Positions 50,712-63,985 of a stretch of DNA of 64,000 nt are shown here, one piece after another (position 1 is the first letter of the stretch; each line of letters starts with the position of its first letter). The notes under the pieces were generated by a model. That model had not been told where the DNA came from. It was given only the letters and a program-made list of their open reading frames with translations, and searched no databases. The position numbers were made by a program, and so were the translations under genes. Source of the stretch: Oceanispirochaeta sp. (lineage in GTDB: Bacteria; Spirochaetota; Spirochaetia; DSM-2461); assembly GCA_963663385.2 (NCBI GenBank), contig CAXXXD010000002.1, forward strand, positions 1,600,001 through 1,664,000, written 5' to 3'.

Positions 50712-50880
50712 CAGGGTAAGGGCAGGTCATAGCTTTGCAAAATACGACTTATTCAATCTAATCTGATCTGCCTGATTTCCGATGTCAGAAATCAGGCCAG
50801 CCTGTCTTCCTGGAACCTGAGCTATACAACAGAGCCCTATTTCTGAACTATCCTTTCTAATAGATACTACTGCTTCTTTT

Positions 50881-51841
50881 GTAAGCGGTAATTCTTCCCA
50901 CATTGACAGCATTTTAGGCCTGAGGGATCAGATTGAAATATCTTCAGCAGTTAAGTTGTAGGGAAGTAATTTTTCATAATCACTCTGTTTTTCACAGCAG
51001 GGCAATTCCCGGAAGATGAAGTACAAGTAAGCATAAACAGGAAGATTATTCATCTTCGCAGAGTCAACAAGGCTGTACAGAATTGCCGATGATTCAGCAC
51101 CTTTCGGGCTCCCGGCAAAAAGCCAGTTTTTTCTTCCGATTACAAATGGTCTGATTGCATTTTCAGCGCTATTGTTCGAAGGAGTCAATACCGGATTTTC
51201 CAGATACAAAACCAGCTGCTCCCAGTTGATTAATGTGTACTTCATCGCCTTTCCGAACTCTAAAGAGGGAGGGACTTGAGGATAAAGGAGGGTCAGTTTT
51301 TTCTGTAATTTATCCAGTATCGGTTCTGCCCTGTTTTTCCTCTGCTTGTAAAAACCTTTTAGCGAATAATTCATCCCGTAGAGATTCCAGTTCAAATAGG
51401 TCCTTTATCAGGTCGAGAATTTGCTTCGCTTCTGCATCCTTTTTCTTGGTTGCTTCCCAGTATTGGAAGAACTTTCTTCTGGCATGAGCCCAGCATAAAA
51501 CATGTTTTATATCTCCCTCGACTTTCTTTCGAGCGGTACGATATGCCTCAAAATCATCGGTCTGAATCCAGCCTGAAAAATCTTCTAAAAACTCCAAAGG
51601 GATCGTATGGGACCGACCTTGTTCGTACTGGAATATGACACATTTTTTATCAGGATCTCTTCTAAGAAAGACCCACATCCATGATTTATCAGCAGTTTTT
51701 CGCTTCGGCTCTTTTAACACCTGAACCCTTGTCTCATCAGCATTGATGACATTGCCGGATTTGATGTTTTCTTTCAGCAATTCATATAGTGGCTTACAGG
51801 CTGTTGCTGACTTAATCGTAAGATTGCTCAATGTCGCCCGG
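50881..51841 (-). mobile_element. Truncated IS66-family element (right end plus 3' part of tnpC)
   Basis: Begins GTAAGCGGTAATTCTTCCCACATTGACAGC, the reverse complement of the right end at 60864. Related but not identical to the IS66 at 56524-60864; similarity stops at about 51841. Confidence 0.92.
50928..51841 (-). pseudogene. tnpC: IS66 tnpC remnant with +1 frameshift near 51382
   Basis: Two overlapping ORFs match the C-terminal half of intact TnpC; GGGATGAATTAT here versus GGGATAATTAT in the intact copy. Confidence 0.9.
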
Positions 51842-51863: not shown

Positions 51864-52013
51864 ATTGGTCAATATAAAATATCTCTGGTGTAAAGCTCAG
51901 GGATATGTTTGATCAAATCAGGATTTAGTTTGCTCCATGGAGTGAACCGCTCCGTGCGGACCCGCTTGCAGGGTGGTGTGGGGCCCGAGGTTAGAAGCCT
52001 CCGGCTACCCGAT
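51864..52013 (+). mobile_element. Group IIC intron 3' fragment (RT tail plus domains V-VI), variant 2
   Basis: Encodes LVNIKYLWCKAQGYV*, then GAACCGC...GGTGGTGTGGGG...TACCCGAT. Confidence 0.9.
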
Positions 52014-53250: not shown

Positions 53251-53332
53251 TCCATGGAGTGAACCGCTCCGTGCGGACCCGCATGCTCATTTGATGTGGG
53301 GGTTGGAGGTTAAAAGCCTCCGGCTACCCGAT
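53251..53332 (+). mobile_element. Group IIC intron 3' fragment (degenerate DV plus DVI only)
   Basis: TCCATGGAGTGAACCGCTCCGTGCGGACCCGCATGC...GGAGGTTAAAAGCCTCCGGCTACCCGAT. Confidence 0.88.
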
Positions 53333-54105: not shown

Positions 54106-54408
54106 AAATCTCACTCCCTCCCCAAAAGGAGGAAACTTAACTGTTACTTCTTTTTCGGATATCTTTACAAAAATTTCAAGCCCTTGGAAAAGATTTTTTC
54201 TGGAATAAACCAAATCATTGTCCAAAATGCGGAAGCCGGGTACTCTGGGGCCATGGTTTTGTTTACCGCTACTTCAATGAATTTCCGGAAGCCCTTCTTC
54301 TCAAACGATACCGTTGTCCCTGCTGCGGAGCAGTGTACCAATAGAAATATCTGACTAGGCGATCCTGGGGCTGGTCGCAAACAAGTTTGCTGCTCGCCCA
54401 TGCAACCA

Positions 54409-54906
54409 GGGTGTTTCTATGGAATACAGGATCCGGAAACTCAATGAGTATATCCGGGCCCTGGTCACAGCTCCGCTGTTGCTCGGGTATGCGGCCGAGC
54501 TGGATGAACTATTATGGAATCTCCCAGTATTACAGCCCTCTTCAGAACCTAGATGATTGGCTCCGCAGGAGGATTCGCATGTGCTATTGGAAACAATGGC
54601 GTTATCCCAGAACAAAAGTCAGGAAACTGATGGAATTGGGTATCCCTAAAGATTTTGCAATTATTACAGGTGCCAGTAGTAAATCCTACTGGCATCTCTC
54701 CAAGTCATACGCTACCAATGCGGCGATGTCCAACAAATGGCTGGAAGAGCAAGGATTGGTCAATATCAAATACCTCTGGTGCAAAGCCCAGGGATATGTT
54801 TGATCAAATCAGGATTTTAGTTTGCTCCATGGAGTGAACCGCCCTGTGCGGACCCGCATGCAGGGTGGTGTGGGGGCTGGAGGTTAAAAGCCTCCGGCTA
54901 CCCGAT
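54409..54906 (+). mobile_element. Group IIC intron 3' fragment (maturase region plus DV-DVI), variant 2, carrying a 40-nt insertion
   Basis: GVSMEYRIRKLNEYIR / WMNYYGISQ...LVNIKYLWCKAQGYV*, then intact DV-DVI ending CCCGAT at 54906. Confidence 0.9.
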
Positions 54907-56600
54907 TTATGAAGGAGTTTTTTAATTATATCTAACTCCAAATATTTGTTCTGTACTTTACATTGTTTTCAAAAGTCCAACCACTTCAGTTACACGCGTG
55001 GAATGTCTGGAGGAAGCCGGAATGCAAAACCGGGAGCCCATGTACAAGAATGTGATAGAAGGCTCAGTTCCAGAGGCGAGTCAGCCAATGATGACGATGC
55101 CCCGTGGGTATGGAATAGGGTAAATCACAGGGTTGTCCGGGGACAGTGTACAGTCTTATTCGGGGAGATCTGTCTGCGGGGCGGTGATGTGTTCTTTTAA
55201 ACTGAGAATCCGGTAGGGAACCGGAAAACCAATCCCCGGCTTTTCAGAGGGTGACACTCTGGAAATGAGCAAGATTATCTTGAGTACAAATAAGTCGTCA
55301 CAGGTTTAAAAGCACGGTATAGCATCAACGGGAGCAATCTCGTTGATTAGCAGGCAGAAGTCAGCAGAAGGCATAGTAACCAACGCCCGGAGTAATGTCC
55401 GGTTCACGGTGAAGGCCTGAACATTTCACAAGGAGGAGCCTTATGGTTCTCAAAGGAACAATTTTAGCACTGGCCGAAATAACTTTTGGCGAATTATGGA
55501 GAAACCAGCCTTGAACGATTCTATGATGGATTTGATTTTATCATCTGAAAACATGCGTAAGGCCTGGAAACAGGTCAAACGCAATGGCGGCAGTCCGGGA
55601 GTCAATGGCATGACTATTGAGAAATTTCCGGAATATCTACGCAGAAGATGGAGTAAAATCAAGCAAGCTTTGCTTTTGGGGTACTATGTACCCTCTCCGG
55701 TGCTCAGGGTGGAAATCCCCAAGAGATCCGGAGGTATGCGAATGCTGGGTATTCCCACTATTTTAGACAGGGTTATCCAACAGGCTATTTCACAGGTTTT
55801 GAATCCTCTATTCGATTCGGATTTTTCGGAAAGCAGTTTTGGATTCAGGCCGGGAAGATCGGCTCACGGAGCAGTACGACAGGTAAATACCTATGTTAAA
55901 TCGGGATACAAGTATGCAGTTGATCTGGACTTGGAAAAGTTCTTTGATACGGTAAATCACGATATTCTGATGCATTGTGTGGCTAAGAAAGTCCGGGACA
56001 AATCAGTCCTGAAATTGATTGGCCGCTACCTGAGAGCCGGTATTATGGACAAGGATGGGATTAAAATCCCTACTGAAATCGGGACTCCTCAAGGAGGCCC
56101 GTTATCACCTCTACTTTCCAATATCCTTCTTGATAATTTCGATAAGGAGTTGGAACGGAGAAACCTGTGCTTTGCACGTTACGCAGATGATGCATTAATT
56201 GTATCAAAACGCCTGTGTGATGGAAAAGCTATATTGACTGAAATAAGTGATTATCTCAGTCGCAGGTTAAAATTGGTTGTAAACCAGAAGAAAAGCAAGG
56301 TGTGTAAAATCTCCGAATGCAGTTTTCTGGGATTCACTTTCAAGGGTAAGAAAATCCGATGGACTGAATCATCCTTTCGGGAGTTTCAATATCAGTTAAA
56401 GCATTTGACAAGACGGTCTTGGGGGGTATCAATGGAATATCGATTCCGGAAACTTAACGAGTATATCCGGGGGTGGATGAACTATTATGGTATTTCCCAA
56501 TATTACAGACCTCTACAATCAATGTAAGCGGTAATTCTCTCCATCTTGCGTGATTTCGAAATGATTATATACTCCATGAAAAATCATGGAGGAACCTAAT

Positions 56601-56882
56601 ATGACCAACTGGAATTGGCCTGAATTAATCGAAGAACAAAAACAGAGCGGGAAAACAATTTCTGAGTTCTGCGCAGATAAAGGAGTTCACTATACATCTT
56701 TCTACAAGAATCGAAAAAAATTAAAGAAAAGCAGTTTTATTGAAATCAAACAGAAAGCCCCGGTATTACAGCCACAAAACCCCACAATGATACTCAGATA
56801 CAAGGATTTCTCATTGGATCTGGCATCAGGTTATAACAGGCAATCCCTGATAGATCTTCTGAAGATTCTGAGAGAGTTGTAA
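56601..56882 (+). CDS. tnpA: IS66 accessory protein TnpA
   Basis: W..LIEEQ..SG.TI.EFC...G...SFY..RKK; GGAGG RBS before ATG 56601 (alternative start 56586). Confidence 0.85.
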   Translation: MTNWNWPELIEEQKQSGKTISEFCADKGVHYTSFYKNRKKLKKSSFIEIKQKAPVLQPQNPTMILRYKDFSLDLASGYNRQSLIDLLKILREL

Positions 56883-59215
56883 TGTTTGGTACGCCCGACA
56901 TGGCTGTACGCTAATGAGGTGAAAGTCCTCTACAGGTGCCCACGTATAGTGAACATGCTATACCAACTGTTAGCTGAAGGCAAGGGCATTTCCGCGAGGG
57001 AATGTCTGGAGGAAGCCGGAATGCAAAACCGGGAGCCCATGTACAAGAATGTGATAGAAGGCTCAGTTCCAGAGGCGAGTCAGCCAATGATGACGATGCC
57101 CCGTGGGTATGGAATAGGGTAAATCACAGGGTTGTCCGGGGACAGTGTACAGTCTTATTCGGGGAGATCTGTCTGCGGGGCGGTAATGTGTTCTTTTAAA
57201 CTGAGAATCCGGTAGGGAACCGGAAAACCAATCCCCGGCTTTTCAGAGGGTGACACTCTGGAAATGAGCAAGATTATCTTGAGTACAAATAAGTCGTCAC
57301 AGGTTTAAAAGCACGGTATAGCATCAACGGGAGCAATCTCGTTGATTAGCAGGCAGAAGTCAGCAGAAGGCATAGTAACCAACGCCCGGAGTAATGTCCG
57401 GTTCACGGTGAAGGCCTGAACATTTCACAAGGAGGAGCCTTATGGTTCTCAAAGGAACAATTTTAGCACTGGCCGAAATAACTTTTGGCGAATTATGGAG
57501 AAACCAGCCTTGAACGATTCTATGATGGATTTGATTTTATCATCTGAAAACATGCGTAAGGCCTGGAAACAGGTCAAACGCAATGGCGGCAGTCCGGGAG
57601 TCAATGGCATGACTATTGAGAAATTTCCGGAATATCTACGCAGAAGATGGAGTAAAATCAAGCAAGCTTTGCTTTTGGGGTACTATGTACCCTCTCCGGT
57701 GCTCAGGGTGGAAATCCCCAAGAGATCCGGAGGTATGCGAATGCTGGGTATTCCCACTATTTTAGACAGGGTTATCCAACAGGCTATTTCACAGGTTTTG
57801 AATCCTCTATTCGATTCGGATTTTTCGGAAAGCAGTTTTGGATTCAGGCCGGGAAGATCGGCTCACGGAGCAGTACGACAGGTAAATACCTATGTTAAAT
57901 CGGGATACAAGTATGCAGTTGATCTGGACTTGGAAAAGTTCTTTGATACGGTAAATCACGATATTCTGATGCATTGTGTGGCTAAGAAAGTCCGGGACAA
58001 ATCAGTCCTGAAATTGATTGGCCGCTACCTGAGAGCCGGTATTATGGACAAGGAGGGGATTAAAATCCCTACTGAAATCGGGACTCCTCAAGGAGGCCCG
58101 TTATCACCTCTACTTTCCAATATCCTTCTTGATAATTTCGATAAGGAGTTGGAACGGAGAAACCTGTGCTTTGCACGTTACGCAGATGATGCATTAATTG
58201 TATCAAAACGCCTGTGTGATGGAAAAGCTATATTGACTGAAATAAGTGATTATCTCAGTCGCAGGTTAAAATTGGTTGTAAACCAGAAGAAAAGCAAGGT
58301 GTGTAAAATCTCCGAATGCAGTTTTCTGGGATTCACTTTCAAGGGTAAGAAAATCCGATGGACTGAATCATCCTTTCGGGAGTTTCAATATCAGTTAAAG
58401 CATTTGACAAGACGGTCTTGGGGGGTATCAATGGAATATCGATTCCGGAAACTTAACGAGTATATCCGGGGGTGGATGAACTATTATGGTATTTCCCAAT
58501 ATTACAGACCTCTACAATCAATTGATGAATGGCTGAGAAGAAGAATCCGTATGTGCTACTGGAAACAGTGGCGTTACCCCAGAACAAAAGTCAGGAAACT
58601 GATGGAGCTGGGTATTCCGAAAGATTTTGCCATTATGACAGGAGCAAGTAGTAAGTCCTACTGGCATCTGTCAAAAGGCTATGCAACCAATGCCGCTATG
58701 TCCAATAAATGGTTGGAAGAGCAAGGATTGATCAATATTAAGGCCCTCTGGTGTAAAATCCAGGGCTACACATGATCAAATTATAGTTTCGTTTGCTCCA
58801 TGGAGTGAACCGCCCTGTGCGGACCCGCATGCAGGGTGGTGTGGGGGCTGGAGGTTAAAAGCCTCCGGCTACCCGATTTGACCTGAACGAATACCGGATC
58901 TTTCTGAGACCCGGCACGACAGACTTAAGAAAAGCGATCAACGGATTATCTCTGTTTATCCAGAATGAAATGAATCATGATTTATTCGCCAAATCGCTAT
59001 TCCTCTTTTGTAACCGGCAGAGAAAACTTCTGAAAATTGTCTACTGGGATAATACCGGTTTTTGTCTCTGGCAGAAGAGACTGGAAGAGAACAGATATCC
59101 CTGGCCGGAAACAGATGAAGATGCTAAAGAGATCAGCATGGATGAATTGAAAATGCTCCTGACGGGAATAGACTTTTTCAAAGCGCATAAAAAATTATCA
59201 TATTCCCGTATTTAG
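56882..59215 (+). CDS. tnpB: IS66 TnpB split by intron (exons 56882-56888 and 58878-59215; 114 aa spliced)
   Basis: Spliced sequence ATG TTT G|TT GAC gives MFVDLNEYRIFLRPGTTDLRKAINGL...LFLFCNR...KIVYWD.TGF.LW.KRLE, all in frame. Confidence 0.9.
56889..58877 (+). mobile_element. Full-length group IIC intron copy B (1989 nt)
   Basis: 5' GTACGCCCGACATGG; short DV with CGC triad (GAACCGCC); 3' CCCGAT; RT lacks an endonuclease domain. Confidence 0.93.
57495..58775 (+). CDS. ltrA: Group II intron reverse transcriptase/maturase (426 aa)
   Basis: R.LGIPT..DR.IQQA, SFGFRPGRS, DLEKFFD, GTPQGGPLSPLL, RYADD, FLGF, GWMNYY. Confidence 0.96.
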   Translation: MEKPALNDSMMDLILSSENMRKAWKQVKRNGGSPGVNGMTIEKFPEYLRRRWSKIKQALLLGYYVPSPVLRVEIPKRSGGMRMLGIPTILDRVIQQAISQVLNPLFDSDFSESSFGFRPGRSAHGAVRQVNTYVKSGYKYAVDLDLEKFFDTVNHDILMHCVAKKVRDKSVLKLIGRYLRAGIMDKEGIKIPTEIGTPQGGPLSPLLSNILLDNFDKELERRNLCFARYADDALIVSKRLCDGKAILTEISDYLSRRLKLVVNQKKSKVCKISECSFLGFTFKGKKIRWTESSFREFQYQLKHLTRRSWGVSMEYRFRKLNEYIRGWMNYYGISQYYRPLQSIDEWLRRRIRMCYWKQWRYPRTKVRKLMELGIPKDFAIMTGASSKSYWHLSKGYATNAAMSNKWLEEQGLINIKALWCKIQGYT

Positions 59216-59254
59216 AGATTTTATAATTATAGAAACTTTGATAGAATTCCCCGT

Positions 59255-60817
59255 ATGGAGAATGAAGAACAGCATTTAAGAGAACAACTTGATGCACAAA
59301 AAATAGAAATTGCTGAACTGAAAAGACTTAATGCCATTCTCCAGGAGCAAGTAGCAAAACTGAACCTCCTGCACTTTGGAACAAAATCAGAGAAGATAAC
59401 TGCCGAAGATAAGAAACAAGCTTCTCTCTTCAATGAAGCGGAAGATAGTGCTTTTGCTCAGAATGATGAAGAGCAGGAGAAAAATGTTATTGAAACGGTT
59501 GAGGTCGGTTCCTACAAGAAAAATATTAAAAAATCCGGCCGGAAACCTCTGCCGGCAGATCTGCCGAGAGAGATCGTGGAATATGATATTCCGGATAAAG
59601 ATAAGATCTGTGCCTGCGGAACAGAAAAGACCTGTATCGGTGAAGATGTTTCCGAGAGAGCAAAAATTATTCCGTCAAAAGTCGTTGTTATTCAGGAACG
59701 TAGAAAAAAGTACTCCTGCAAGAATTGTGAAGGGACGACTCTTGATGAAGCTGCTGTACAGACCGCAGAAGGAGCAAAGCATCTGGTCGCGGGCAGTATT
59801 GCCGATGAAAGCCTGCTCGCTTGGAGTATAAGCGAAAAGTTTGAGTTCGCTCTTCCTTTCTACAGGCAATCAAAACGGTTAAACCAGATAGGCATACCGA
59901 TCCCCCGGGCGACATTGAGCAATCTTACGATAAAATCGGCAACGGCATGTAAGCCTCTATATGATTTGCTGAAAGAAAACATTAAATCCGGTTCCATTAT
60001 TAATGCCGATGAGACGAGAGTTCAGGTTCTAAAGGAACCGAAACGAAAAGCTTCAGATAAATCATGGATGTGGGTCTTTCTCAGAGGAGATCCCGATAAA
60101 AAATGTGTCATATTTCAGTATGAGCAAGGCCGATCCCATGCAATTCCGTTGGATTTCTTGGAAAATTACTCTGGCTGGGTTCAAACTGATGATTTTGAGG
60201 CCTACCATACTGCCCGAAAAAAAGTTGATGGAGATATAAAGCATGTCTTATGCTGGGCCCATGCCAGAAGAAAGTTCTTCCAATATTGGGAATCAACCAA
60301 GAAAAAAGATGCAGAAGCAAAGCAAATTCTCGACCTGATAAAGGATCTGTTTGAACTGGAATCATTACGGGATAATTATTCGCTAAAAGGGTTTCATAAA
60401 CAGCGACAAAATAGAGCAGAACCGATACTAGATAAGTTACAGAAAAAACTGACGAAGCTTTATCCTCAAGTACCTCCTTCTTTAGAGTTCGGTAAGGCGA
60501 TGAAGTATACATTGAGCAACTGGGAGCAGTTGGTTCTATATCTGAAAAATCCTGTTTTGACTCCTTCGAACAATAGCGCTGAAAATGCAATCAGACCCTT
60601 CGTAATCGGGAGAAAAAACTGGCTTTTTGCCGGAAGCCCGAAAGGTGCTGAATCATCGGCAATTCTGTACAGTCTCGTTGAATCTGCGAAGATGAACAAT
60701 CTTCCAGTTTATGCTTACTTGTACTTTATCTTCCGGGAATTGCCCTGCTGTGAAAAACAGAGTGATTATGAAAAATTACTTCCCTATAATTTAACTGCTG
60801 AAGATATTGCAATCTGA
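59255..60817 (+). CDS. tnpC: IS66 DDE transposase TnpC
   Basis: FGTKSEK, zinc ribbon, ADET, CWAHARRKF, NN.AE.AIRP...GRKNWLF. Confidence 0.95.
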   Translation: MENEEQHLREQLDAQKIEIAELKRLNAILQEQVAKLNLLHFGTKSEKITAEDKKQASLFNEAEDSAFAQNDEEQEKNVIETVEVGSYKKNIKKSGRKPLPADLPREIVEYDIPDKDKICACGTEKTCIGEDVSERAKIIPSKVVVIQERRKKYSCKNCEGTTLDEAAVQTAEGAKHLVAGSIADESLLAWSISEKFEFALPFYRQSKRLNQIGIPIPRATLSNLTIKSATACKPLYDLLKENIKSGSIINADETRVQVLKEPKRKASDKSWMWVFLRGDPDKKCVIFQYEQGRSHAIPLDFLENYSGWVQTDDFEAYHTARKKVDGDIKHVLCWAHARRKFFQYWESTKKKDAEAKQILDLIKDLFELESLRDNYSLKGFHKQRQNRAEPILDKLQKKLTKLYPQVPPSLEFGKAMKYTLSNWEQLVLYLKNPVLTPSNNSAENAIRPFVIGRKNWLFAGSPKGAESSAILYSLVESAKMNNLPVYAYLYFIFRELPCCEKQSDYEKLLPYNLTAEDIAI

Positions 60818-61300
60818 TCCATCAGTCCTAAAATGCTGTCAATGTGGGAAGAATTACCGCTTACCAATCAATTGATGAATGGCTGAGAAGAAGAATCCGT
60901 ATGTGCTACTGGAAACAGTGGCGTTACCCCAGAACAAAAGTCAGGAAACTGATGGAGCTGGGTATTCCGAAAGATTTTGCCATTATGACAGGAGCAAGTA
61001 GTAAGTCCTACTGGCATCTGTCAAAAGGCTATGCAACCAATGCCGCTATGTCCAATAAATGGTTGGAAGAGCAAGGATTGATCAATATTAAGGCCCTCTG
61101 GTGTAAAATCCAGGGCTACACATGATCAAATTATAGTTTCGTTTGCTCCATGGAGTGAACCGCCCTGTGCGGACCCGCTTGCAGGGTGGTGTGGGGGCTG
61201 GAGGTTAAAAGCCTCCGGCTACCCGATTTATACGGCCCGCATTTTACCAACATCTTCCGCGCCCCCGCCGAAGCACAGGACGTGCGGAGGTGGATTTCTT

Positions 61301-63985
61301 TCAATCTTTGTACTCCCTGAAACTTCTCATAAGACCATCAAATGAAGTCGGTTTATACTTATGAAAAGCCGCTTCATCAACAAAGACAAAATCAAAATGT
61401 ATATCTTTCTGAACTCTGTTGATGTCTTCACACCACTGCTTAAGTCTTTTCATCTTTTCCGGTACATCCAAATCTTCAAGACCTTTTGTTTCGACAATTA
61501 CTATCTCTTTATTTGTGACTTTCACAAGAAAATCCGGGTAGTAATTTGAAGGAAAACCATCTTTATTGATGTAATCAATAGTAAAGTGAACTGCTAGGAA
61601 GTTTTTGGCATAGGAAATAATGTCGGTACAATCTTCAAGAAAAGCTGCAAATTCAAGTTCAAGATGGCTGTCTCCAATAATTTTATTAAAAACAGATTTC
61701 TTGGGTATGATGAAACCTTGATCTTTAGCAACAAAGGGTCGTGTTTTTCTCAATTTTATATAATCGCGAATCTCTGCATCGCCTTTATCCTGCACAGTCA
61801 GTTCATTAATATATTTCTTGAATGATTCAATGATCGTTTTTGTGGCCTGTAGTTCAGATAAATTTCTTAGTGTATTCAGATCATCGATTTCAACGGTTTC
61901 TTGAAATAAATGATTGGCAATGAAATCCTTAACTTTGCCATAAAGAACATCGTATCCGCTGACAAGCCGTAAATCTTTCATTATTACCTGAGCGAAGTAA
62001 CCTACGACACTTCTATAATCTGTTACCGCAGTTGTATCCAGGTGCGTGACATGATTTACCTCGTTGGTGGTAATATCCTTAAAAACAATTTCACGTTTTT
62101 GTTCTTCTGAAAATTCAAGATATTCAATCTTTTGATTACCGAAAGATGAAGGGTTTAAGTTGGCAAAATTTTTATATTCACGATATATTCGGGGAGTAAG
62201 AACAGGTATTTCGATATCCAACTTTTCAATATCCTTGTTGGTATTTTCATTATCAACTTCAACAATGATCGGTGCTTTCGGTGCTGTGCCTTCCCCCATT
62301 GGTTTCCGTTCAAGCTCAACACCTTCACTTTGGATTGATTCAACAAAATCCATAAATGCATCAGTTCCGACAATGCTGACATATTCTTCTATGTCAGAAC
62401 CAAAGTACATACGGCGCAAACCACGGCCAAGTGTTTGTTCCGGTAAGATATTGCTTTTAGAAGAATATGCACGAAGTCCAACTATAGTTGTTACATTTCG
62501 AACATCCCAGCCTTCTTTCAGCATTAGAACTGATACGATGGCTTTGTACGGGCTATCCCAGCTATCAATTTTATTGGATTCATCTCGTAATTTGTCTAAT
62601 TCTTCTTTTTTCTTACCTGTTGTGGATTCTGAGATTTCACCACTTTTATTGGTATGAATAGTCATCACTGAATCTTTAAACTCCGGGAAGCTTGATTCAA
62701 GATATTCTGCAACTTCATCACAGTTTTTTGTGTCATCTGTCATAATGAAAAGAATGGCCTTTTTTCCAAGCTTTTCATGTTCAGAGTACACCTTCCGCCA
62801 TTCTTCAACTCCGAGATTAATGTAGTCGGAATACCGTTCTGTAAAAAGTGAGCTTTGTTTTTCTGCAAGTTTTGCTCGACTTGCACTATCAGGTAATACC
62901 GGATGCTTTACAACATTTTGTGAAATGGCTTCTACTAACGGATAATCAGAAATTGTCTGAACAAAAATTGCTCCGTTATTGTGTTTAGGTGTTGCAGTCA
63001 CATCAACCTGTAAAGAAAGAAAATGATCCTTTTGAAGGAGCTTATTATGTATATCCTGAATTGATTTAAACCAAGCAAGTTTAGAATCATGAATATGATG
63101 GGCTTCGTCATTTAACACAACAAGCTCGTCAATATCTCTAACAATCTCACCAAGATCAACTTTGGAGTCTGTTGTTTTTCCAGTCGGACGTTTACCAAGG
63201 AAATAATCCATTGTGTTTTCAGCAGCAAAACTTGCCTCGGCAGTATCAGCTGAATAAACACGATGAATATTGGTCAAAAAGATATTTCCTGTTTTGCGGA
63301 CAATACTGACATCATCCTGTATATGAAGTGTCAATTGAAAATCATCCTGCCAATTCTGACCGTCATACCCGTTGTCCGGAAGAATCGGGTCTTCAAAGAA
63401 AATTCGCAGTCCGTCAAAATCAGTTCTGATCCGGTCAAGAACAATGATATTAGGGGCAATTAAAAGGAAGTTTCTGGCAAGTTCCGAGTCTTCTTCATAG
63501 GTTTTATGAAAGTACGCCCATGCAAGGATCAGACTCATGACTTTTGTTTTACCGCTTCCGGTAGCCATTTTAACTACAAGCCGCCTCCATTCCTCATCAA
63601 ACATTCCCGCAGAAACCGCCTGGGAGGAATCGTAGCGAAGCATATCGTATTTATCTTTAACCTTTACCACATCATAAAGATAGATAACGGTTTCCACGGC
63701 TTCTCTTTGTGCATAGTAATACTTGAAAGGAATAACTGAACCATCGGCCTTGGGAATGAGGTGTTCGGTTTTAAACCACCAATTCAGCAAAGAAATGCTG
63801 GTATTGCTGGCTCCTTCATAATTTTTCTCCCTCCAGCCATGGATTTCTTTCCTTAACGAATGAACCAGAGGAGGCAGCAATTTTTCATAACTCGATTCCC
63901 TTAATGCTTCGTCAGCAGGGAACCAGCGGACATCCGGGTGAAGAATTTCATAAGGGGATGATGGAAAATCGGGATGTATTGCCAT
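61301..63985 (-). CDS. Type III restriction enzyme Res subunit-like (SF2 helicase plus PD-(D/E)XK nuclease)
   Basis: MATGSGKT, DEAHH, TATP, EGWD, Q..GRGLR, C-terminal YYPDF...VETKG. Confidence 0.88.
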   Translation of the reverse strand: MAIHPDFPSSPYEILHPDVRWFPADEALRESSYEKLLPPLVHSLRKEIHGWREKNYEGASNTSISLLNWWFKTEHLIPKADGSVIPFKYYYAQREAVETVIYLYDVVKVKDKYDMLRYDSSQAVSAGMFDEEWRRLVVKMATGSGKTKVMSLILAWAYFHKTYEEDSELARNFLLIAPNIIVLDRIRTDFDGLRIFFEDPILPDNGYDGQNWQDDFQLTLHIQDDVSIVRKTGNIFLTNIHRVYSADTAEASFAAENTMDYFLGKRPTGKTTDSKVDLGEIVRDIDELVVLNDEAHHIHDSKLAWFKSIQDIHNKLLQKDHFLSLQVDVTATPKHNNGAIFVQTISDYPLVEAISQNVVKHPVLPDSASRAKLAEKQSSLFTERYSDYINLGVEEWRKVYSEHEKLGKKAILFIMTDDTKNCDEVAEYLESSFPEFKDSVMTIHTNKSGEISESTTGKKKEELDKLRDESNKIDSWDSPYKAIVSVLMLKEGWDVRNVTTIVGLRAYSSKSNILPEQTLGRGLRRMYFGSDIEEYVSIVGTDAFMDFVESIQSEGVELERKPMGEGTAPKAPIIVEVDNENTNKDIEKLDIEIPVLTPRIYREYKNFANLNPSSFGNQKIEYLEFSEEQKREIVFKDITTNEVNHVTHLDTTAVTDYRSVVGYFAQVIMKDLRLVSGYDVLYGKVKDFIANHLFQETVEIDDLNTLRNLSELQATKTIIESFKKYINELTVQDKGDAEIRDYIKLRKTRPFVAKDQGFIIPKKSVFNKIIGDSHLELEFAAFLEDCTDIISYAKNFLAVHFTIDYINKDGFPSNYYPDFLVKVTNKEIVIVETKGLEDLDVPEKMKRLKQWCEDINRVQKDIHFDFVFVDEAAFHKYKPTSFDGLMRSFREYKD

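Follow-up and report, generated by a model that had tools for sequence, protein, structure and literature searches.

An intron within an IS66-family element within a truncated copy of the intron, in the integron of a probable spirochaete

How does a group II intron come to lie inside an insertion sequence (IS) that itself lies inside a near-identical copy of that intron? This question is raised by a 64,000-nucleotide stretch of an Oceanispirochaeta sp. genome (G000:C2:1600001-1664000, on C2 of the four contigs C1-C4; hereafter the window), in which intron A is split by an IS66-family element and intron B resides within that element. We established the anatomy of the locus from a listing of open reading frames, repeat finding, a base-by-base comparison of A with B, and Rfam, Pfam and profile searches, and used BLAST to look on all four contigs for further copies of the intron and of the IS66 with its intron removed. 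The best explanation, to which we assign a probability of about 0.8, is that mobile elements inserted successively into a single integron recombination site. The most likely order of insertion is A, then the IS66, then B in place; in the four-step scheme set out below, the order of the last three steps is one that we infer.

The IS66-family element displays tnpA, tnpB and tnpC in one direction, terminal inverted repeats and a perfect 8-bp target duplication, CAATCAAT, all of which are expected of this family (Table 1). An 8-bp repeat is also listed for two IS66-family elements in a table of PMC3281130. The first-pass annotation of the window had placed the element inside A, between these duplications, and B inside the element, and both placements hold to the base. 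Removal of B leaves a 2352-bp IS66 that is a base-for-base copy of C3:734563-736914, and B's borders are exact because intron-free IS66 copies show the corresponding empty site. The intron interrupts tnpB after nucleotide 7 (ATGTTTG | intron B | TTGACC), and the two exons, when joined, encode the same 114-aa TnpB as the intron-free copies. Splicing of B would be expected to restore the tnpB frame exactly. Since B runs in the tnpA-tnpB-tnpC direction, transcription of the IS66 would yield intron RNA.

One part of the earlier description requires correction. The intron that holds the IS66 is indeed a copy split into two segments, but it is not a whole intron, as nucleotides 1-110 are gone. The IS66 interrupts the protein gene of A at codon 343 of 426, and the point of insertion lies within the GIIM maturase domain (residues 296-367) and not in the reverse transcriptase (RT) domain proper. 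The further proposal that two mobile elements recently inserted into each other is supported by the sequences of both: at 100% identity, the IS66 without B has two matches elsewhere in the genome, and B has four among the other full introns besides matching the pieces of two further split copies. Our BLAST search for intron-free and intron-carrying forms of the element, a check that the annotation had called for, found at least six full intron-free 2352-bp copies and one intron-carrying copy, that of the window, among approximately 11 copies or pieces in the genome. Perfect 8-bp duplications flank eight of the nine genomic IS66 copies that retain both ends. Within the locus, the direct repeats estimated earlier at about 1.5 kb and 360 nt measure 1524 and 363 nt and are spaced 1999 and 2350 nt apart. 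By these coordinates, a crossover between the 3′ repeats would, as foreseen, leave B whole; the 2350 bp lost would comprise the right end of the IS, the entire tnpC gene and the greater part of tnpB.

Table 1 Coordinates of the nested elements and flanking features (window positions)
Feature	Position	Strand	Remarks
Intron A, 5′ segment	55000..56523	+	Equals B positions 111-1634, gapless
Intron A, 3′ segment	60865..61227	+	Equals B positions 1627-1989, gapless
Protein gene of A, truncated, 343 codons	55496..56527	+	Runs into the left end of the IS66
Domains V-VI of A	61158-61227	+	Counterpart of B 58808-58877
IS66-family element carrying intron B	56524..60864	+	4341 bp; 2352 bp without the intron
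IS66 terminal inverted repeats	56524-56548 and 60840-60864		25 nt, 84% complementary
8-bp target duplication CAATCAAT, left copy	56516..56523		Intron positions 1627-1634
8-bp target duplication CAATCAAT, right copy	60865-60872		Start of the intron A 3′ segment
tnpA, IS66 accessory protein, 98 aa	56586..56882	+	NF047593, 39.5 bits (cut-off 28)
tnpB exon 1, ATGTTTG	56882..56888	+	Start codon overlaps the tnpA stop
Intron B, full-length, group IIC-attC-type	56889..58877	+	1989 nt, GTACG to CCCGAT; same direction as the IS66 genes
Intron B protein, intact, 426 aa, RT and maturase	57495..58775	+	RVT_1 1.3e-44; GIIM 4.2e-18; TIGR04416 401 bits (cut-off 300)
Domains V and VI of B	58808..58877	+	RF00029 48 bits (gathering score 40)
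tnpB exon 2	58878..59215	+	TnpB_IS66 1.5e-24
tnpC, IS66 DDE transposase, 520 aa	59255..60817	+	DDE_Tnp_IS66 8e-85; NF033517 385 bits
TTATAC, 3′ exon of A	61228..61233	+	Rest of an attC G|TTATR box, by likeness to occupied and empty attC sites
Spacer between relic C and A	54907..54999	no strand	Read as the end of a lost cassette
Relic C, 3′ part of a related older intron	54400..54906	+	End of protein gene and domains V-VI; RF00029 48 bits at 54837-54906
Type III restriction enzyme gene	61301..63985	-	ResIII; REase_III 1.5e-23; last gene of the cassette whose attC took intron A

The two introns are closely related, and their few differences indicate how they are connected. As counted originally, A and B differ at exactly three positions: 55186 (G/A), 56056 (T/G, which changes Asp to Glu in the intron protein) and 61179 (T/A, in domain V). 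In intron numbering, the alleles of A are 297G, 1167T and 1941T. C4:1178568 also has 297G and 1167T, C3:730865 also has 1167T and 1941T, and the full combination is absent from any other single copy. The genome holds seven full-length introns including B, along with further split or partial copies of both intron and IS66, and near-identical intron DNA makes up 0.34% of the total. Because A's variants recur in two divergent copies, A belongs to a different allele lineage than B, which was not copied from A; B derives instead from a recently amplified "master" allele. Position 1941 (window 61179) is the first base of the two-base bulge in domain V, which reads AU in B and UU in A. This bulge is a catalytically important spot in group II ribozymes. 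The variant is an allele and not private decay, since it is common to A and the full copy C3:730865-732853, whose splicing may be impaired. A itself is dead on two counts, having no 5′ splice site and a split protein gene, and is dead regardless of the IS66 insertion because the 5′ truncation removed the splice site.

What kind of intron is this? Rfam models match both copies, those in B covering group II domains I-IV and V-VI, with RF02001 scoring 114.3 bits in B and 96.7 bits in A, RF01998 62.2 bits in each, and RF00029 48 and 44.3 bits, respectively. The predicted fold of B displays the two-base bulge in domain V and a bulged A in domain VI. Several properties place the intron in class C (IIC): it has ribozyme domains including V-VI, it encodes RT and maturase with no endonuclease domain found by the Pfam scan of the 426-aa protein (RVT_1 and GIIM being the only families detected), and at several of its sites it follows an attC or terminator hairpin, in keeping with the habit of class C introns of inserting behind such structures at targets that have a short intron-binding site 1 (IBS1) and no IBS2. 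CGC in place of AGC as the catalytic triad of domain V is a hallmark of IIC introns. Here the lower helix of domain V is CCGCCCUGU, in which positions 2-4 form C-G, G.U and C-G pairs, giving a CGC triad.

The closest intron proteins come from Spirochaetia assemblies, at 79-81% identity. We built a tree of 21 intron proteins (24 were extracted, of which L049, L083 and L078 were left out as fragments), where the window protein groups with introns from Spirochaetia and Desulfobacterota and with an intron from a cassette array on a Klebsiella plasmid (L102), the latter situated beside dfrA12 and another cassette gene. This group is split from introns of Bacillus, Lachnospiraceae and IncC plasmids with 97/97 support. 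Integron-associated IIC introns form a single clade; in this tree they are represented only by L102, a long branch that lies on the window protein's side of the 97/97 split. The plasmid integron-borne protein and the window protein are only 48.5% identical.

The surroundings of the nest form an integron, with an IntI integrase beside attC-bounded cassettes that read away from it. The integrase gene, the only one of its kind in the genome, lies 26 kb downstream at C2:1687729-1688955 (L020:3729-4955; TIGR02249 380.6 bits, cut-off 265). The array extends from approximately window position 50870 to L020:3700, to the left of intI and on the opposite strand; its cassette genes occupy the minus strand and the introns the plus strand. 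In silico excision of the intron regenerates an AAC...GTT hairpin of approximately 110 nt at each of three sites in the array and at one on C4 (z-scores from -6.2 to -8.1 for the three tested), and the introns sit at the GTTAT end of these hairpins, beside cassette stop codons. Sites S2, S3, S4 and C4:1178568 are long hairpins and C2:97525 lies just after a terminator-like hairpin, with z from -4.1 to -8.1 for the four tested among these five. Empty attC sites homologous to the occupied hairpins are present on contig C1.

These positions correspond to those described for IIC-attC introns, whose target is R″ on the attC bottom strand and whose direction opposes that in which cassettes are transcribed (PMC3001079, PMC7923331). 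In its behaviour, the intron is of the group IIC-attC kind. A target consensus of TTGT/T has been published for such introns. All eight full-length insertion sites instead are cut at TTG/T, with seven reading TTG/TT and one having TA after the TTG, and their 5′ exons share nothing beyond that terminal TTG. The cut position is unambiguous because empty IS66 and attC sites set the borders.

The site that B occupies in the IS66 is of another sort. It matches the usual targets only in TTG|T, and no significant hairpin was found there (z = -1.45), nor at the two intron sites within a repeat of about 420 bp. Since it lacks a significant upstream hairpin and only one of approximately 11 IS66 copies is occupied, the IS66 site is an ectopic target and not a homing site.

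Four steps would account for these features. First, the IIC-attC-type intron A would have retrohomed into the bottom strand of an attC at G|TTATAC, antisense to the cassette, the target being the attC that follows a cassette of DUF3800 and type III restriction-modification genes. Second, the IS66 would have transposed into the maturase-coding part of A, duplicating the 8-bp target. Third, a ribonucleoprotein of the active "master" allele would have reverse-spliced into the IS66 at ATGTTTG|TTGACC, where the tnpA stop meets the tnpB start. Fourth, at an undated time, a deletion would have taken nucleotides 1-110 of A along with the left attC half and most of the neighbouring cassette.

The middle two steps could in principle have run the other way, with the intron entering an IS66 elsewhere and the 4341-bp composite then transposing into A. 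In favor of this, the IS ends and the 8-bp duplication are intact, approximately ten other IS66 copies could supply TnpB and TnpC in trans, and splicing could restore tnpB in cis. Such a history nevertheless predicts a second intron-bearing IS66, and none occurs among the ~11 copies or pieces. The IS66 family probably moves by copy-and-paste. If it does, the donor copy should remain; moreover, an IS with a broken tnpB would be a poorer mover than its many intact siblings. We therefore regard prior assembly of the composite as improbable and favor insertion of B into an IS66 already resident in A.

The fourth step concerns the missing 5′ end of A. Similarity between A and B breaks abruptly at 55000/56999, so that A has lost both the 5′ splice site and the opening part of domain I, and the first hairpin of the RF02001 model is disrupted in A. 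We read this junction as a deletion of A's first 110 nt together with the left attC half and most of the adjoining cassette. A could alternatively have been truncated on arrival, had reverse transcription stopped early and the complementary DNA been joined without homology. Truncation of group II introns at the 5′ end is common according to PMC7923331, also in cassette arrays, and the array here holds three more 5′-truncated relics (51864-52013, 53251-53332 and 54400-54906). What precedes A, however, does not correspond to the 5′ exon to be expected, as it neither ends in TTG nor contains half of an attC: a search for the left half in 54900-54999 found no attC-like fold (z = 0.05). That upstream sequence, of which 54932-54999 is single-copy in the genome, directly follows the 3′ exon of relic C (itself 85% identical over 54501-54906 to B positions 1585-1989), as would fit a deletion that took the attC half and the cassette. 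Truncation on arrival is accordingly the less probable origin of the junction, though one we would still weigh seriously, and a later deletion is preferred.

Could the nest instead be a product of mis-joined repeats, the true locus having a single intron or some simpler form? The genome invites this concern, with approximately nine intron and 11 IS66 copies at 99.5% identity or more, and two contigs end inside IS66 copies (C3:1-1279 and C4:1197431-1199760), indicating that this repeat limits the assembly. We compared 56464-60924 with short-read (Logan) contigs from four of 16 public runs, a stretch inside the outer junctions 54999/55000 and 61227/61228, and none of the listed contig pieces bridges a junction of the nest. 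On the other hand, the six junctions are all distinct and, with none used twice, permit one linear chain, the IS66 lies between perfect duplicates of intron sequence, A has its private combination of alleles, and two comparable nests, also with perfect duplications, occur elsewhere in the assembly. On this internal evidence repeat mis-assembly is unlikely, and we consider it very much so. Two joints in the public data do not bear on the window junctions: the one that skips the 1989 nt of the intron represents the intron-free IS66 form from other copies, and a 36-nt piece across 56888/56889 has a mismatch and a short left side, the left part of which fits the 5′ exon of two other intron sites.

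Several considerations count against the stepwise account as a whole. Parsimony alone argues for placing B after the IS66. The 5′ truncation of A could date from its insertion, through incomplete reverse transcription. The public runs consist of short-read contigs, which collapse repeats, and no listed piece bridges a junction of the nest. The splicing of B from an IS66 transcript is a prediction made from the sequence. The cut at TTG/TT lies one base to the left of the IIC-attC consensus, and L102, the sole integron-borne reference in the tree, sits on its long branch.

Having weighed these alternatives, we retain successive insertion into one attC, and the rest of the genome contains related cases. 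At C2:1667245-1673830 (L019:3245-9830), in the same array as the nest, an intron is split by an IS66 at positions 1789-1796, and this IS66 is in turn split by an IS21-family element of 2225 bp with istA and istB, present in six identical genomic copies. This nest therefore comprises four levels: IS21-family element in IS66 in intron in attC. A further IS66, at C2:116827-121414, is also struck by an IS21 element. On C3, at 747712-752764, another intron is split by an IS66 at GGCTATGC, again positions 1789-1796 and in the orientation opposite to that of the L019 nest, and a second IS66 abuts intron position 1649. The copy at C3:750413 is bounded by two different sequences, TTTAAAGT and GAAGAAGA, a sign of later rearrangement.

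Four IS66 ends hence fall within 170 nt of maturase-coding intron sequence (positions 1627-1796). By our own arithmetic, the binomial probability that at least three of ~11 random insertions would land in intron DNA is approximately 7e-6. Junk DNA tolerates insertions, which accounts for some of this clustering but not for the double hit on one 8-bp site. Alignment of eight sites at their duplications revealed no consensus that would define a shared IS66 target motif, and our literature search on target choice in the IS66 family found nothing. GTAAGCG is the typical end sequence of IS66 elements. An IS66-family element of approximately 2.5 kb with such ends and an 8-bp repeat, AAGATAAG, sits at about codon 167 of a related intron's protein gene in an uncultured Desulfobacterium (L058:494-3010, OY771474.1), one of the 87 loci examined. 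One may ask whether the IS66 and the IIC-attC intron favor one another as targets, in a pairing that benefits the intron. We hold this to be doubtful. If it were true, the 170 nt would be a hot spot for IS66, the sense position at the tnpA/tnpB junction would give an intron otherwise bound antisense in the array both a promoter and a DNA-transposon vehicle, and IS66 transposition could depend on splicing, as proposed for RmInt1 and ISRm2011-2.

That system offers a parallel to B in its IS. RmInt1 is not a class C intron, and ISRm2011-2 is its regular homing site, occupied in many copies. The IS66 of the window differs in that one of ~11 copies is occupied, at a site without the usual hairpin. 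What the two have in common is a mobile group II intron lying in sense orientation inside an IS, as described for RmInt1 of Sinorhizobium meliloti in PMC4238363, where splicing is reported to govern expression of the ISRm2011-2 genes.

At the level of class, the comparison is with integron-borne introns. Like introns of the S.ma.I2 type, known from a class 1 integron of Serratia marcescens, the window intron encodes an RT-maturase without an endonuclease domain. It also resembles the IIC-attC introns of PMC3001079 and PMC7923331 in entering attC at R″ on the bottom strand, where it lies antisense to the cassettes, and in that landing after terminator-like hairpins is possible too. It differs from published IIC-attC introns in its host, the chromosomal integron of a probable spirochaete, and in the cut (TTG|TT versus TTGT|T).

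The arrangement recalls a twintron insofar as one intron copy lies within the borders of another of the same family. In a twintron, however, the inner intron interrupts the RNA of the outer one and the two are removed in two splicing steps. Here B is embedded in IS66 DNA, which separates it from the RNA of A, and A has no 5′ splice site; sequential splicing of outer and inner intron is impossible because the IS66 intervenes and A lacks its 5′ end, and the locus is consequently not a twintron. It is also reminiscent of insertion sequences nested in "safe haven" DNA, in which one mobile element sits in another with clean target duplications. Unlike those, it involves reciprocal nesting of a retroelement and a DNA transposon, with the IS66 hits clustered within 170 nt of the intron.

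Each ingredient of the locus is known: IIC-attC introns in integrons, group II introns in IS elements, nested IS elements and defence genes as cassettes, the last described in bioRxiv 10.1101/2024.07.02.601686. New are the reciprocal intron/IS66/intron stack, the probable spirochaete host, the clustering of IS66 insertions in the intron and an array without an unoccupied attC by a crude scan. A literature search found no such nest of group II intron and IS66, which does not show that the arrangement is unpublished. Knowledge of the element classes themselves is unchanged. The locus does preserve in clean form how a retroelement and DNA transposons colonize each other inside an integron, and the genome's own empty sites define every border to the base. 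It also extends IIC-attC introns to a chromosomal integron, of a probable spirochaete, whose cassettes are multi-gene phage-defence systems: Lamassu, type III restriction-modification, PDC-S47 with DUF2441, and PIN_8.

There are also consequences for the array. It should lose cassettes readily by homologous recombination, because about 30 kb of it contain identical introns in direct orientation, and an attC that has been split should no longer permit the usual excision of its cassette; both effects bear on the stability of defence "biobanks". Identical introns also occur in this genome both at attC sites and behind an ordinary terminator, the two locations that a proposed route of cassette formation requires (PMC7923331).

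To see how far the nest extends beyond this genome, we searched 31 genomes with a 565-nt query spanning its junction. Only G000 gave a full match, and the IS66 left end gave two short weak ones. A related intron, 82-90% identical, occurs in five other genomes of the set. G007, of the same genus, contains many related intron copies (85-90% identical over the ends tested) at C1:1038000-1061200 and C3:187400-273800; these are clustered within tens of kilobases and may represent another intron-laden array. The nest query found no IS66 in G007.

The cassettes of the window's array encode Lamassu (LmuA/B/C), a PDC-S47 protein (Abi_alpha domain) with a DUF2441 protein, a PIN_8 protein, a DUF3800 protein with type III Mod and Res, a Phd/HigB-like toxin-antitoxin pair and a GNAT acetyltransferase. 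Several of these cassettes comprise more than one gene and span 4-6 kb. The crude scan that found no unoccupied attC in this array identified seven, ending in TTGTT, in the integrase-less arrays of the genome. Those arrays of attC-like hairpins, resembling clusters of attC sites lacking integron-integrases (CALIN), lie at C1:26778-33689, C3:730537-744802 and C4:1191753-1191852. The ~420-bp repeat occurs in them and beside intI, and two of its copies hold an intron.

A scan for promoter and terminator consensus sequences gave 17 promoter-like matches versus 11.5 expected, and six terminator-like versus 6.4, by consensus only. One promoter-like match, TTCACT-18-TATAAT (10/12, by consensus only), lies on the minus strand near the 3′ end of both introns (58780-58809 and 61130-61159), antisense to them, and faces into the intron in the cassette direction.

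Older debris lies to the left of the nest. Window positions 50881-51841 hold a truncated IS66 relative at 88.7% identity, and the 5′-truncated intron ends at 51864-52013 and 53251-53332, which are 83% and 89% identical, each stand just ahead of a cassette gene stop codon. A fragment of an open reading frame at 54165-54344 (plus strand), with two Cys pairs (CPKC...CPCC) and no paralogue in the genome, ends just before relic C and is possibly the remnant of a zinc-ribbon transposase or of a cassette gene.

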